From a bacterium (GTDB lineage Bacteria > Electryoneota > Electryoneia > Electryoneales > Electryoneaceae): a stretch of 64,000 bases of DNA. Below, piece after piece: positions 15,253-29,599 of this stretch; within the stretch, counting starts at the first letter, position 1; each line of letters starts with the position of its first letter. The stretch is from positions 1,152,001 through 1,216,000 of the forward strand of contig OY769902.1 of the NCBI GenBank assembly GCA_963669175.1, given 5' to 3'. The position numbers and the translations under genes were made by a program. The notes under the pieces are model-generated. The model was not told the origin of the DNA. It saw only the letters and a list, made by a program, of their open reading frames with translations, and did not search any database.

Positions 15253-16185
15253 CTACCAGAGGAAACTCAGGCTCAGCCGCTGTGTGTTTCCCAGGTCGTA
15301 ATCGAAGGGGGAATAGCCATAATCGAATTTCCAGGCGCGCCAGTGCAGGCCGAACCCGAAGGACAGGTCTCGAGCTTCGTAGCCGGTGGCATACCCGCCA
15401 CGCAGGGCGACCATGTTTCCGATTTCCAGTTCAAGAGCGCCACGGACGGACAGATCCTGATCCAGCACCTGTACCGCATCCACCATGATCGTCGGCGCTA
15501 CCATGCCAAACGTGCCGACATGCCAGGCTGCCCCGGCAGAATAGGTAGTCGGCAGGTCATAAGCTTCACTGATCATGGCGTCCATGGATCCCATGTGACG
15601 CGCTGTGGCGGCCAGATCCAGGCGTCCCTCGAACAAACCGGCTTTCAGCAGGCCGGCATCGAACGCCCAACCGTGGGTATCGTAAATGTAGATAGCGTCA
15701 CTGAGGTAACGTGCGGTGACACCCATGCGGATGCCGTAGAACATTTCGCGTGAGGCGCTCAGGCCGATCGCGTAGCTGCGTGCATCAAAAGTGCCGATGG
15801 GAGAAGCGGAGGGGTTGTCACGCAGTTCCATGTTACTGGTGCCGACATGCAGGATCGAGCCGCCCAGACCCCACTTACCCGCTTGCATCTCGCCGGAAAC
15901 ATACTGCGATGAAGTGCCCTTGATCCAGTCGACATACATGACTTCCAGACCGGAGCCATCTTTACCGACCGCAGCCGGATTCCAATAGGTAGCGGTTGGG
16001 CCTTGTACAGTCGCGGTGACAGCTTCACCGAGCGCAGCCGCACGTCCCCCCGGGCCGATCTCCAGCCAGGAAGCGCCCACTTCACCCAATGCCATACCTG
16101 AAACCAGCAAACACCCGATAAGGGCTAGTAAGAAATACCGTGTCATCCTCATCCTCGAGAGAGTTTGGAGCCGAAAAGCAACCAT
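15253..16185 (-). CDS. PorV/PorQ-family outer-membrane barrel (T9SS-associated)
   Basis: LEIGPGGRAAALGEA...YWNPA N-terminus, LRGGY, FDYGY, terminal aromatic residue. Confidence 0.82.
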   Translation of the reverse strand: MVAFRLQTLSRMRMTRYFLLALIGCLLVSGMALGEVGASWLEIGPGGRAAALGEAVTATVQGPTATYWNPAAVGKDGSGLEVMYVDWIKGTSSQYVSGEMQAGKWGLGGSILHVGTSNMELRDNPSASPIGTFDARSYAIGLSASREMFYGIRMGVTARYLSDAIYIYDTHGWAFDAGLLKAGLFEGRLDLAATARHMGSMDAMISEAYDLPTTYSAGAAWHVGTFGMVAPTIMVDAVQVLDQDLSVRGALELEIGNMVALRGGYATGYEARDLSFGFGLHWRAWKFDYGYSPFDYDLGNTQRLSLSFLW

Positions 16186-24117: not shown

Positions 24118-24632
24118 CCCTGTCGCGAAAATTTCTGGTCTTTTCCGGGTCTATGGCCCCGGCCTACCGCAAAACAAGATAAGGTAGGCCCGAAGGGACA
24201 AGAGGGGCAAGTTACATGGTTCCAGGCTATTGTTTACCCGGCGCTCAGTCAGGGATCACTATTCGAACAGGATGTGGATACTTAGCCTCTATTGACTTCG
24301 CAAGGTATGGAGCCAAAAACACTCGTCTCAAAGCGGGGGGAATACTGCTATTGCGCATGGCAGGCCTGTTTTCCTAGTTTGTTACCCCGGAGGGTGTCAC
24401 AACCATCTCATATCTCTAGTCAAGTCGATTTTTACACTTGGGCTTGAATAATTGTCTACAAATGGGTAAACTATACTATTGTCCAGGGAGAACAAGTTTC
24501 TCTGTGGAGTCTGGTGGGATTGCCGGTTTAATTAAAAATTGGCATATTACTTTCTTGTAGCGTTGTGCAGACAGACTGGTTTTTTCGTTTTGAAAGTCAG
24601 ATACAGCTAGCCATAGGTAAAAGGAGATCAAG

Positions 24633-26669
24633 ATGCAAAAGCGATCTGCGCTGAGCCTTCTTTTCATTGGGCTGCTTGTTGTTTCAAGCGCTCACGCCTT
24701 CCCGCGCACAAAAGTTCTGTATGAGAACTTCTCGGCGGACTGGTGACCATACTGCGGACCAGCGTCGCTGGTCCTCGACAACTTTTACAACGACGTGAAC
24801 TACGAAGCTGCTATTATCACGTACAGCACTTCAGGGAGCGATCCGTTCAGGGCGTACAATTCTGCCTATCACACCGCCCGTGCGACTTATTACGGGGCAA
24901 GCGGGATTCCGCATTGCTGGTGCGACGGAGTGCTGGATTTCCACCCTGGTTCTGCAAGCAACCTGACCAATGCGTACAACCAGCGCATAAACGATGATTG
25001 TCCGATTTCAATCGACATCTTCGCTGCTGCCGCCGGTGACGAGGTCAGTGTGACGGCAACGGTGAACAGCGGTGATGAAGCTGTAAATGGCAGCTATGTC
25101 TTGCATATGGCTCTTGTCTGCCTGGATTGGAGCCACTACAACTATAACGCCGGCCAGGAGTATGGCCATCATAGCCTTTTGGACATGTCGCCGAATGCCA
25201 GTGGGCAGACTTTCGCGATTGATGCGAATTCCACGGAAACCTTTACGGGTTCATTCGAGTGGCCGATCACGTTGCAGGGCTATGAGATTGAATTCGACAA
25301 TGTTGAAGTTATTGTCTGGGTACAGAACACGACCACGGATGATGTGATCCAGTGCCAGGCCAGCGAGCTGGCGACGGACTACATGTTTACGGCAGAAGCG
25401 GAAGTGCTTAATTCGCTGGCGCCTGTCGGCGTAGCTCAAAGCTTTGATATCGACATTGACAATGTTGGGTTACAGCAGGATACATACGATATCACAGTTT
25501 CCTCTGATCTTCCCGATACCTGGAGTTTCAGTTACACAACCCCGGATGGCGACCAGAGCGGCAACTCTACCCTTACAGTTGCTTCCATGGAAAGCTATAC
25601 CAGCACTCTTACCATCACACCGGATGATGTCGAAGGCGCTTCAGGAAGCATGGAAATTACTATCTCGTCACAGACAGTTCCGGCAATGAGCTATTCATTC
25701 CCGTTCTTCGTGATGAATACGCCGCGCGTGCTGGTGGTAAATGGTGACCCGGAAGGCAACTACGGTGATTTCTACGAAAGCGCCATTGAAAACGCTGCAA
25801 ACATCAATTTGGACGGAAATCTGAGCTGGGGTGTCTGGCCGGTATATGAGAATGAATTGACCGCATTCGATCTTGCTTTCGTTTCTTCAGAACTGATGAT
25901 CTGGTTTATTGGTGATGGTGGCAATATCCAGGACACACACGTTTCCGGACTGGTGTCCTATCTGAACCAGGGCCACAACCTGTGGATCAGTGGCAGCGCT
26001 TCACCACAGCGTATTGATGATACCGTATTGTTAAGTATGATGGGGGCCGATTACCAGGGCACCTATCCGTCAGGAGTATCGGTTTCCGGTGTTGATGGTG
26101 ACCCGGTTGGCGATGGCCTGACCCTTAACCTTGGCGGTGGCGACGGTGCAGATAACCTTGGTGTGCCAACATCCATGACCCTCGATGGCGGCACCCAGTG
26201 CATCATGTACTCGGCTATTCGTCGCGCAGGTGTCCGTAACGAAGGCGAAACAGGCTATCGCACACTTCTGCTTGGCTTCCCGTTTGAAGCCATTGCCGAT
26301 GAAGACAGCCGTAACACCTTCATGCTTCAAGCTTTGGGGTGGTTAGTTCCCGCGGGCTGGGGAGATGCGCCGGAGCTGGGGGGTCATTCTACCCCACAGG
26401 AGTTCAGCCTGAGTCAGAATCATCCGAACCCCTTCAACCCAACCACAGAGATCGCGTTTAACCTGCCCGCCCGTGCGGAGGTATCGGTAACCGTGTATGA
26501 TGTGATGGGACGTGAAGTGGTACGGTTGGCGAATGGAACGTACACCGCAGGCAGCCATCAGCTTACGTTTGACGGCAGCCACCTGGCCAGCGGCGTCTAT
26601 TTCTGCCGTATGACCGTGACCGGTGAACAGAGTTTCGAAGCCACGCGAAAGATGATGCTGATGAAGTAA
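24633..26669 (+). CDS. Secreted Omp28/thioredoxin-fold selenoprotein (UxxC, Sec38) with T9SS CTD, 678 aa
   Basis: AAGGAG RBS, ATG 24633, signal peptide MQKRSALSLL..AHA, VLYENFSADW-TGA(24744)-PYC in frame with ORF 24795-26669; the paralog has CSPC at the same place. Confidence 0.85.
24756..24774 (+). promoter_or_regulatory. Candidate bacterial SECIS hairpin
   Basis: GGACCAGC-GTC-GCTGGTCC; the loop starts with G after a 17-nt spacer from the TGA. Confidence 0.65.
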
Positions 26670-26768
26670 CCTGCTTGGTATCTTGAATCCGTTTGTGTAG
26701 TTTATTTATAGAACGGAGATTCTCTTCTGGTGGACCGATTCACATGGATCGGTCCACCAGGAAACAGT

Positions 26769-26798
26769 AAGCCCGATGGGAATCCGTCGGGTTTTTTC
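26769..26798 (+). terminator. Rho-independent terminator (intron target)
   Basis: aagcccgatgg-gaat-ccgtcgggtttttt. Confidence 0.8.
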
Positions 26799-26800
26799 TG

Positions 26801-27464
26801 GTGTGCCAGGCATGGTGTATCGCTAATGGGGTGCAAGTCCCCTGTGGGCCTTGATGACAGGAACCAGTAGCCCAAGGCAAGGGCGTCGTCGTGAGGCGGG
26901 GTCTGGAGGAAGCCGGAGGCGGATGTTGGACTCGACGAACAGGAATCGGATAGAAGGCCGTCTCAGCAGGGTAACGTGGCCATGGACACGGACGCCCGAT
27001 GTCATCCGGATGCTGTGACGGTAAATCCGGCGAGGGCCAACAGAAAGCGGTACATCTTACCCTGGGAGGCCTCACAGTCTGTCGGTATGATGCCGACTAC
27101 CGGTCCAGCGATGGAAGGGAAGGGCGGTGAGGAGTCAGCCGAGGCCATAGTAGTCACCCACCGGGTGATGAAGGGCCGAATCCTTTGATGCAAGGAGCAG
27201 TCTTGTATTCTCAGAAGTCATGGAGTTGCTGCAAAGAGGATGTTGATCTGGAAAAGACAACATCACGCCACGATACGTCTGGTAACCGCAGAACGAGAAC
27301 TGGGGTATTCGAGGAGTAACAAATGCTTCTGGCGTTGACCAAAGCACGAGCCTTGGCGGTTGTTTACCGCAACCGTTCCCACATCGAAGGAAACCGCCGT
27401 GGTACCGAGCAGGTATGCCCGGTGGTGTGAGAGAGGGGCATCGTGAGATGCCCCCCTACTCGAT
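26801..27464 (+). mobile_element. ORF-less group II intron, class IIC
   Basis: 5' GTGTG; domain V ACCGCCGTGGTACCGAGCAGGTATGCCCGGTGGT with CGC triad; domain VI hairpin ending CTACTCGAT; inserted just after a terminator; no RT ORF in 664 nt. Confidence 0.88.
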
Positions 27465-27568: not shown

Positions 27569-29599
27569 ATGCAGAAAGTGAGGTTGCTGCTGACAGTGTG
27601 TGTGTTCCTTTCTGTTGTTTCAGCAGGGGGCAGTTTTGCTTATGACCGTGTAGTTCTGATTGAAGATTTCACAAATATAAATTGTTCACCTTGCTTTGAA
27701 GTTGCTTCAAGGCTGTATAATTTTATTGATAATAATATGGAAGATGTTGCTGTTGTAATAACGCATACATATTGGGAAGAAGATGATGATCCCTGGTTTT
27801 TGCATGCTATGGATGCCTCTATAACACGAATGGAATATTACGATGTGCCTGGGATACCATACTTGTTGATGGACGGACAACATATCGCTTATGCCCCGGG
27901 TATCATGCAAAACACCCTCCAGAGCCTGATGGAACAGGAAAGCCCGGTCGAGATCGAGTTGCTTCCGATTGTTATGGATGGAGATTCTGTTCATGTCCTG
28001 GTAACTGTGAACAGTGGTGATGAAGAGGTTGTAGGCAATTATTATTGTTTAAGGGTAGCACTGGTTGAATACTATTCACCCTATGAAGCGCCGAATGGAC
28101 AGGATGATTGGTACTATGGCTTGCATGCTTACCAACCGGATGCGGACGGAACAGCTTTTTCAATTGAAGCCAACTCCACAGAGGACTTCCAGTTCACATT
28201 TGAATGGTCAGATCGGTATGACGCAGAAAACCTCAGAGTGACAGCCTATATCCAGAATGACTACAACCGTGAGGTTATTCAGGCTGCAATGTCAACGCCT
28301 GTTCCTTATTATGCTTTCACGGCCGAAACCACGGAATACAGATCGATTTGTGATCCGAACAGCATGGTTGAGTTCGAAATTAATCTTGAGAATCTGGGGT
28401 ATATGGCCGATACATATGCTGTCGAACTCAATTCAGGAATGCCGGATTCATGGTCTATAACCTATTCTACCCCGGACGGCGAGCAGTCTGGGAACAGTAG
28501 CATTTCGCTTGATGCCGGTGAAGTATATCCTGTTCATGTGTCTATTGAAACAGACGAAGAAAGGGGCGCGTCCGGTTTGTTGACCCTGACATTCATTTCT
28601 TCAGCCGACCCTGAAGAAACCTGTGAGGTCAGTTATTATGTATTGAATACGCCACATGTGCTTGTAATCAATGGCGATTCCGACGATTCATATGAGGACT
28701 ATTTTTCCGGATCCCTTGGCTATGCATCGGAAGCTATACGGGACGAGCCCCTCAGTTACAGCGTCTGGCCCATTTGGCAGTATGACTTGGACGCGTTTGA
28801 TTTGGGTAGGCTTTCGGCAGAGGCTATTATCTGGTTTACGGGCGATCATGGCAGTTTTACCGATGCCCATTTGATGGGCCTTCGTTCTTACCTGATCAAC
28901 GGCGGGAATCTCTGGATTAGTGGCAGTGGCGCGCCACAAAGCATTGATGGGACAAACCTGCTGAATATGATGGGCGTAGAATCCCATGATAACTATCCGA
29001 GCGCTTCAGTTGCCTATGGAGTTGATGATGATCCGGTGGGGGATAACCTGTCATTTAATCTGTGCGGTGGCGATGGCGCGGACAATCTGGGTAATCCTGC
29101 AACATTGACTGCAAACAATGGTACTCCGTGTCTCATGTACTACGCCAACTGTTGCGCCGGTATGCGCAATGGGGGACAACTTGGTTATCGCACGTTACTA
29201 CTTGGATTTCCCTTCGAGGCCATCGCGGATAGCAACAGTCGGAACGAACTAATGTTGCAGGCATTGAGCTGGTTGGTTGAAAATGAGTCCAATATTTGTC
29301 CAGCTCAGCAGGAGAATGTATTACCCGGGGCATTCAGCTTATACCAGAATCATCCGAACCCCTTCAACCCGACCACAGAGATCGTGTTCACCCTTCCTGA
29401 CCGTGCGGAGGTATCGGTTACTGTGTTTGATGTGATGGGACGTGTAGTGGTCCATTTGGCGAACGGAACATGCACCGCCGGCAGTCATCAGCTTACGTTC
29501 GACGGTAGCCACCTGGCCAGCGGCGTCTATTTCTGCCGTATGACTGTGACCGGTGAACAGAGTTTCGAAGCCACGCGAAAGATGATGCTGATGAAGTAA
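27569..29599 (+). CDS. Omp28/thioredoxin-fold (CxxC) secreted protein with T9SS CTD, paralog of the selenoprotein
   Basis: VVLIEDFTNINCSPC; collinear with the 24633 protein; nearly identical CTD DNA. Confidence 0.85.
   Translation: MQKVRLLLTVCVFLSVVSAGGSFAYDRVVLIEDFTNINCSPCFEVASRLYNFIDNNMEDVAVVITHTYWEEDDDPWFLHAMDASITRMEYYDVPGIPYLLMDGQHIAYAPGIMQNTLQSLMEQESPVEIELLPIVMDGDSVHVLVTVNSGDEEVVGNYYCLRVALVEYYSPYEAPNGQDDWYYGLHAYQPDADGTAFSIEANSTEDFQFTFEWSDRYDAENLRVTAYIQNDYNREVIQAAMSTPVPYYAFTAETTEYRSICDPNSMVEFEINLENLGYMADTYAVELNSGMPDSWSITYSTPDGEQSGNSSISLDAGEVYPVHVSIETDEERGASGLLTLTFISSADPEETCEVSYYVLNTPHVLVINGDSDDSYEDYFSGSLGYASEAIRDEPLSYSVWPIWQYDLDAFDLGRLSAEAIIWFTGDHGSFTDAHLMGLRSYLINGGNLWISGSGAPQSIDGTNLLNMMGVESHDNYPSASVAYGVDDDPVGDNLSFNLCGGDGADNLGNPATLTANNGTPCLMYYANCCAGMRNGGQLGYRTLLLGFPFEAIADSNSRNELMLQALSWLVENESNICPAQQENVLPGAFSLYQNHPNPFNPTTEIVFTLPDRAEVSVTVFDVMGRVVVHLANGTCTAGSHQLTFDGSHLASGVYFCRMTVTGEQSFEATRKMMLMK

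Follow-up and report, generated by a model that had tools for sequence, protein, structure and literature searches.

Introduction

Among the described bacterial selenoproteins, the closest system is GOS_C, a thioredoxin-like family with a UxxC motif and a SECIS element that was reported in 2008 with 74 sequences (PMC2398784); in the table of a 2026 review, the model NF045500 ("Omp28-related selenoprotein") is equated with the hypothetical protein GOS_C (PMC13188914). The bacterial SECIS (bSECIS) model given there allows a loop of 3-9 nt with a G in the first two loop positions and a stem of 4-16 bp, located 16-37 nt from the UGA, with a minimum free energy of -7.5 kcal/mol or lower (PMC13188914). 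Type IX secretion (T9SS) is not mentioned in this review.

On the side of protein export, the closest system is HBP35 of Porphyromonas gingivalis, which possesses a thioredoxin activity requiring both of its cysteines, binds hemin and is required for growth under hemin depletion (PMC2907840). HBP35 is attached to the surface through its C-terminal domain (CTD), and an N-terminally truncated form of 27 kDa still binds hemin (PMC2907840, PMC4674972). In the T9SS of Bacteroidota, the cargo crosses the inner membrane unfolded via Sec, and a motor has been proposed to power the transport (PMC10202324). No paper joining selenocysteine with type IX secretion, nor one joining Omp28 with selenoprotein, was found in the literature searched, outside of which most subscription journals fall.

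In this work, a gene located at 24633-26669 (+) of a 64,000-nucleotide stretch of bacterial DNA (the window) was analysed. The sequence data taken as a whole argue strongly for a genuine selenoprotein gene, encoding a putative thioredoxin/Omp28 oxidoreductase that is very likely exported and is probably sorted to the surface.

Results and Discussion

Reading frame and domain architecture

The ATG at 24633 lies 6 nt downstream of the Shine-Dalgarno-like site AAGGAG (24621-24626, +) and opens a frame of 678 codons that, once TGA is translated as U, contains a single TGA and ends at the TAA stop 26667-26669. According to the translation, the paralogs and the homologs, this TGA (24744-24746, +) would encode selenocysteine (Sec) 38 within the motif W-U-P-Y-C, with Cys41 as the resolving cysteine. 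Residues 1-22 (24633-24698, +) resemble a signal peptide, with a basic start, a hydrophobic core and an A-H-A end; the pattern and the cleavage site were assigned by eye, with the addition of a hydrophobicity screen. The ribosome-binding site, the start codon, the hydrophobic leader and the in-frame W-TGA-P-Y-C are all present in the sequence as reported in the preliminary description, and an in-frame hydrophobic core is found upstream in 38/38 TGA homologs with U-x-x-C. The list of ORFs obtained with table 11 contains only a 624-aa ORF starting from GTG 24795, upstream of which no Shine-Dalgarno-like sequence was found. The close homologs returned from public collections measure 617-633 aa, and these lengths are consistent with the same truncation.

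The structure of the protein was modelled with AlphaFold2 on a 48-sequence alignment (mean pLDDT 90.8, pTM 0.59); given this pTM value, the packing of the domains is less certain than the single domains. Residues ~23-247 (24699-25373, +) correspond to a thioredoxin-fold plus Omp28 domain, assigned on the basis of PF11551 (Omp28 family, 34.9 bits, at the curated cut-off), NF045500, the match to the HBP35 structure and the invariant columns. The best structural match of this domain is HBP35 (5Y1A), with a Foldseek E value of 6.8e-13 and a VIA-align Z of 24.1 (rmsd 2.4 over 218 residues). Pro93, embedded in G-I-P, is invariant and presumably plays the cis-Pro role of the thioredoxin fold. The domain is followed by an all-beta, Ig-like spacer (~residues 250-362; 25380-25718, +), delineated by the AlphaFold2 secondary structure, and then by an alpha/beta domain similar to class I glutamine amidotransferases (GATase) and ThuA (~residues 365-573; 25725-26351, +), whose VIA matches reach Z 17.1 to 3SOZ, 17.0 to 7VL0 and 16.6 to a GH42 enzyme. 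The invariant columns of the GATase-like domain include neither Cys nor His, and the domain is probably non-catalytic. When modelled from the single sequence this domain gave an unusable pLDDT of 30, and the matches of the middle region in an ESM Atlas search were all below 0.9.

After a linker with pLDDT below 50, the protein ends in a T9SS type A C-terminal sorting domain, followed by the TAA stop (26394-26669, +), which exceeds the cut-offs of both PF18962 (37.2 vs 27 bits) and TIGR04183 (34.3 vs 23 bits). The pairing of a UxxC thioredoxin/Omp28 fold with a T9SS sorting domain, initially proposed from the letters alone, is in this way recovered by family models and by the HBP35 match. All the complete TGA homologs (30/30) finish in a sorting-domain-like tail in a regex test.

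Export route

The source genome encodes a full-length SprA, detected in 40/41 genomes of the phylum, and a PorU gene directly followed by an adjacent PorV gene. It also harbors at least nine PorV-family matches over the cut-off and at least 308 tail-bearing (sorting-domain) ORFs. Of these ORFs, 143 have a TGA in frame ahead, in 13 cases with a G-loop hairpin whose stem measures 5 bp or more; among the 13, only the three Omp28 paralogs also show, by eye, a leader-like extension. A gene of the PorV/PorQ family (15253-16185, -; 122.8 bits vs a cut-off of 90, match G000:C1:1167262-1168077) is located 8 kb upstream of the Sec gene.

The motor gives a different picture: GldM was not found in 41/41 genomes, nor were GldN and GldL in 21/21, in searches run without a positive-control match, so that divergent forms are possible, and GldK returned only partial matches (76 vs a cut-off of 350 bits). 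It is possible that the T9SS of the source genome and of its 40 relatives works without a motor. No paper on T9SS parts in Calditrichota/Zixibacteria was found in the literature searched, from which most subscription journals are absent; the T9SS papers listed there were of a general kind or dealt mainly with Bacteroidota.

These data bear on the place where the protein resides. Export beyond the inner membrane is very likely. Directed by its leader, the chain would pass the inner membrane unfolded via the Sec translocon and fold in the periplasm. The type A sorting domain would then target it to the translocon formed by SprA/PorV and to the sortase PorU; by analogy with HBP35, this sortase might cut off the tail and either attach the protein to the surface or release it there. 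The selenoprotein might instead stay in the periplasm as a folding catalyst similar to DsbA/DsbC, because a partial T9SS does not carry it over the outer membrane. Such a location would fit the missing GldL/M/N matches and the GldK score below cut-off, together with the description of the motor as driving T9SS transport (PMC10202324), and a periplasmic thioredoxin would be near its recycling partners. However, SprA, PorU, PorV, the PorV-family matches and the many tail-bearing ORFs are difficult to account for unless proteins are exported across the outer membrane, and the closest structure, HBP35, belongs to a surface-attached protein. Periplasmic retention appears rather unlikely on these grounds, and display at the surface by a T9SS-type route, suggested by analogy, is the somewhat more probable outcome. 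The earlier proposal of export to the cell surface stands as far as SprA, PorU, PorV and the sorting domain are concerned; the motor genes were not found, and the location itself is deduced. The accompanying remark that such a location is unusual for a bacterial Sec protein was overstated, since secreted and outer-membrane bacterial selenoproteins are already on record, as is the Sec-Omp28 domain (PMC2398784, PMC13188914).

Putative function

The thioredoxin/Omp28 domain is predicted to act as a thiol-disulfide oxidoreductase using the U-x-x-C pair. Its likeliest job would be to isomerise or reduce the disulfides of the sorting-domain proteins, or to act on other extracellular substrates, while the Ig-like and GATase-like domains most likely represent a stalk or a binding module. 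Disulfide isomerase/reductase activity is, on balance, slightly favoured as the main role. No electron donor that could serve a redox enzyme at the surface was recognised. Isomerisation consumes no electrons overall, so that an isomerase would fit the lack of an identified extracellular reductant.

A main role in the capture and reduction of heme or metals at the surface, as in HBP35, rather than in disulfide shuffling, would agree with the shared fold (Z 24.1), with hemin binding by HBP35 and with its requirement under hemin depletion (PMC2907840). The identity with HBP35 in the structural alignment is 16% only, no heme or iron-uptake gene was recognised by eye among the neighbouring ORFs, and, as the truncated 27-kDa HBP35 still binds hemin, the redox pair need not take part in binding. 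Taken together, a heme-related main role appears improbable.

Alternation between selenocysteine and cysteine

The source genome contains five full-length paralogs, with TGA in the Sec column of three of them and TGT in the other two. One of the latter (27569-29599, +), adjacent to the Sec gene, has the same architecture and 47% identity to it; in the aligned columns it shows C-S-P-C, the first Cys being encoded by TGT 27683-27685, as the preliminary description had noticed. The residues between the redox pair differ among the paralogs.

The domain is present in 38/41 genomes of the phylum, for a total of 97 matches, 39 of which carry one TGA and none a TAA or TAG; the TGA copies are spread over 19/41 genomes. 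Leaving out three matches, of which two are interrupted by the end of a contig and one is weak, the remaining 94 comprise 38 sequences with U-x-x-C, 49 with C-x-x-C, one with U-x-x-S and six lacking the pair, so that the search for homologs with TGA/Cys-codon alternation, which had been suggested as a check, gave a positive answer. The U-x-x-S case (L067, G009:C17) reads C-U-G-G-S, with Sec retained and the resolving Cys gone. Since six homologs (L070, L075, L087, L116, L119 and L120) have no redox pair, part of the family is non-redox or redox-dead. The related-locus search run with a single domain led to one locus, the gene in genome G001.

In an unrooted quick tree of 87 domains, with SH-aLRT support only, 10 Sec/Cys changes were counted, six of them forced by well-supported branches; in the same unrooted tree the Sec gene and its Cys neighbour do not group as sisters. 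The Cys paralogs may represent a selenium-independent version of the same activity. An undecoded UGA would leave a peptide of 37 residues, with the Cys paralogs possibly acting as a back-up, and the output of the gene should therefore follow the selenium supply.

The SECIS hairpin

A bacterial SECIS candidate with an 8-bp stem (24756-24763 / 24767-24774, +) and the 3-nt loop GTC begins its loop 17 nt after the TGA. The hairpin agrees with the published bSECIS model in loop length (3 nt), in stem length (8 bp), in the G at the first loop position and in its spacing of 17 nt, and its energy, between -15.3 and -17.0 kcal/mol, lies well beyond the model limit of -7.5. Over 57 nt the region reaches -17.0 kcal/mol (z -2.75), a value equalled by 2/200 shuffles, and the encoded amino acids do not account for the structure (synonymous-codon shuffle, z -4.6, p 0.003). 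Of the 221,272 TGA triplets in the genome, only 0.12% are followed by a hairpin having a 3-nt loop that begins with G and a stem of 8 bp or more.

In 19 same-family TGA genes, compensatory changes occur at 8/8 stem pairs, which 0/500 shuffles reach, and 87% of the cells pair in the stem compared with 25-48% in slid registers, bearing in mind that these controls lean favourable because the structure was taken from the Sec gene itself and the kin are related. The perfect 8-bp hairpin with a G-first loop at a SECIS-compatible distance, pointed out at the outset, accordingly both fits the published model and covaries. Other families of TGA homologs have longer, bulged hairpins. The mean downstream folding energy is -12.0 kcal/mol in TGA genes vs -6.8 in Cys genes (kin not being independent), and synonymous shuffles are beaten at p<=0.05 by 22/38 TGA genes vs 4/49 Cys genes.

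A hairpin of nine pairs with the loop TTG (27693-27713, +; p 0.02) is found near the SECIS position of the Cys paralog. Although conceivable as a relic, it is not claimed as a "fossil SECIS", as the proportion of Cys genes passing at this level is about that expected by chance and its loop starts with T.

Selenocysteine machinery and decoding of the TGA

The source genome (5.45 Mb in one contig, 95.9% complete) encodes the machinery for which a check had been proposed: selA (539 bits), selB (348), selD (356) and tRNA-Sec (64.7) are each above the curated cut-off, and selD itself carries one TGA. Among its relatives, selA is over the cut-off in 18/19 TGA-bearing genomes, and the 19th has a tRNA-Sec and, where a contig ends, part of a selA gene; the two genomes in which neither selA nor tRNA-Sec was found contain Cys copies only, three in total. 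This linkage is a weak test, because 38/41 genomes have selA. In one relative (G021), a Sec-type Omp28 gene (G021:C1:2412459-2413142, -) is located about 1.6 kb downstream of the tRNA-Sec (2414712-2414803, -), on the same strand.

A strict genome scan for hairpins that follow a TGA and have a 3-nt loop beginning with G kept 24 candidates, including SelD and all three TGA-bearing Omp28 paralogs, so that the same hairpin form is shared with SelD and with other selenoprotein-like genes. The candidates also include genes that, named by their motifs, are presumably SelW/Rdx-like, thioredoxin-like and of the ExtKL cytochrome type; the remaining ones look like noise. A looser genome-wide TGA scan consisted mostly of wrong-frame noise. 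Other likely selenoproteins lie at G000:C1 4678447 (+), 3339420 (+), 1657354 (-), 4640638 (+) and 35207 (-); these five are SelD and, presumably, a SelW/Rdx-like protein, a thioredoxin-like protein with U-T-P-C, a probable ExtKL-type cytochrome and a peroxiredoxin-like protein. The peroxiredoxin-like candidate does not have the short hairpin.

The available data make it close to certain that the early TGA of the gene is read as selenocysteine. The gene content of the genome and the conservation suggest that Sec-tRNA would be brought to codon 38 by SelB attached to the in-frame SECIS. TGA is recoded to Cys or Trp in some bacteria, and a non-canonical tRNA or a SelB-dependent Cys system might do so here, in accordance with the Sec column alternating with Cys codons. 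ARAGORN, though, detected one tRNA with the anticodon TCA, typed SeC (the anticodon of another listed tRNA is undetermined), which passes the Rfam tRNA-Sec cut-off, and SelA and SelD are intact, making insertion of Cys or Trp highly improbable. Nor is TGA globally recoded, as had already been argued from its use as an ordinary stop elsewhere: genome-wide it ends many long segments (561/1,610 open segments of at least 400 aa, spurious frames counted in), and the code is therefore not globally recoded.

The idea that the TGA is a real stop (a nonsense mutation, a pseudogene or a sequencing error), leaving the 624-aa ORF or no product, could appeal to that ordinary usage and to public collections, where only the 624-aa version is present, but it is refuted by conservation, since a same-genus genome has the same TGA and hairpin at 67% protein identity, TGA copies recur across the phylum, the hairpin covaries, GTG 24795 lacks a Shine-Dalgarno-like site and second-sample contigs crossing the codon match at every position (X4, 24652-24821, depth 5.1). 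Reads and relatives were the sources in which a sequencing error or a recent nonsense mutation was to be looked for; the same-genus relative and the second sample both keep the TGA. The contig of another read run (X3) stops at the TGA of the Sec gene, and runs X1 and X2 are one sample, which may be the source of the assembly.

Surroundings of the locus

The Sec gene is closed by an intrinsic-terminator-like hairpin (26769-26798, +). Just ahead of it lies a long, near-perfect palindrome (26727-26761), and the read data indicate similar elements elsewhere. Right after the terminator, an ORF-less group II intron of ~664 nt (26801-27464, +; Rfam RF02001 130 bits, RF01998 67 bits; ends placed by eye) separates the Sec gene from the Cys paralog. 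Its position after a terminator is a trait that we take to be class IIC-like. The intron is single-copy (blastn, source genome), and a search of the source genome for a reverse transcriptase (PF00078) gave none. The outcome of a promoter scan (8, with 6.5 expected) does not depart from chance.

The 3' ends of the tandem paralogs (26415-26669 vs 29345-29599) are identical at 233/255 positions and at 123/130 over the last 130 nt, whereas their N-terminal domains have only 34% amino-acid identity (GC 0.535 vs 0.427). Near-identical tails joined to divergent N-terminal domains therefore suggest a recent gene conversion or tail swap.

Implications

Gene callers omit the leader and the catalytic U-x-x-C, so that the 624-aa entry looks like a leaderless, redox-dead hypothetical protein. 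The correction adds three selenoproteins to the source genome, and 39 TGA-bearing genes over 19/41 genomes searched. If the surface location is true, Sec chemistry extends to T9SS cargo, and it also becomes a question by what means cargo leaves cells lacking a detectable form of the known motor; if the motor-less surface reading holds, selenoproteins would act outside the outer membrane. A broader picture can be put forward only tentatively, namely that the whole uncultured phylum might display Sec redox enzymes on the outer surface via a stripped-down T9SS (SprA, PorV and PorU, with no recognisable GldKLMN), with neighbouring Sec/Cys paralogs as a selenium switch; the surface selenoproteins would then help to fold a secretome of more than 300 proteins. 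As the Sec domain type has been predicted since 2008, the surprise for specialists should be limited.

Comparison with known systems

The Omp28 family is joined through the PF11551 match and through a fold match to the Omp28 domain 2R2C (Z 13.4). Unlike the Omp28 lipoproteins, the Sec protein has no match to NF033782 (the Cys neighbour scores 36.2 vs a cut-off of 150) and its leader carries no lipobox Cys, so anchoring would go by the CTD route.

HBP35 (PG0616, PDB 5Y1A) has the same succession of signal peptide, thioredoxin/Omp28 domain and T9SS CTD. It differs in having two Cys and no Sec, in its length of 344 aa, without the ~330-residue Ig plus GATase-like insert of the Sec protein, and in an identity of only 13-16%; moreover, its host P. 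gingivalis has the full T9SS motor.

Like GOS_C/NF045500, the Sec protein has a leader ahead of a thioredoxin-like domain in which the U-x-x-C occupies the corresponding position, and its gene has a bSECIS downstream. The NF045500 model matches residues 25-246 (E 2.7e-12), but unlike its members the protein reaches 46.8 bits vs a cut-off of 200 and covers 231/377 model positions; all five paralogs score 31.7-48.9 bits. Several reads in the GOS_C supplement show, by eye, the same motif pattern as the consensus of the present Sec/Cys family. Those reads are fragments or have short, acidic, repeat-like tails, and a search of the supplement file for three motifs typical of sorting domains gave no match (PMC2398784); the Sec protein, by contrast, carries Ig-like, GATase-like and type A sorting domains. 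By analogy, the Sec protein is expected to work like GOS_C and HBP35, yet on account of its score it is not filed as an NF045500 member. Judging from these likenesses, the Sec domain is of the GOS_C/Omp28-related type, and the gene is best described as a longer, secretion-tagged form of the type predicted in 2008.
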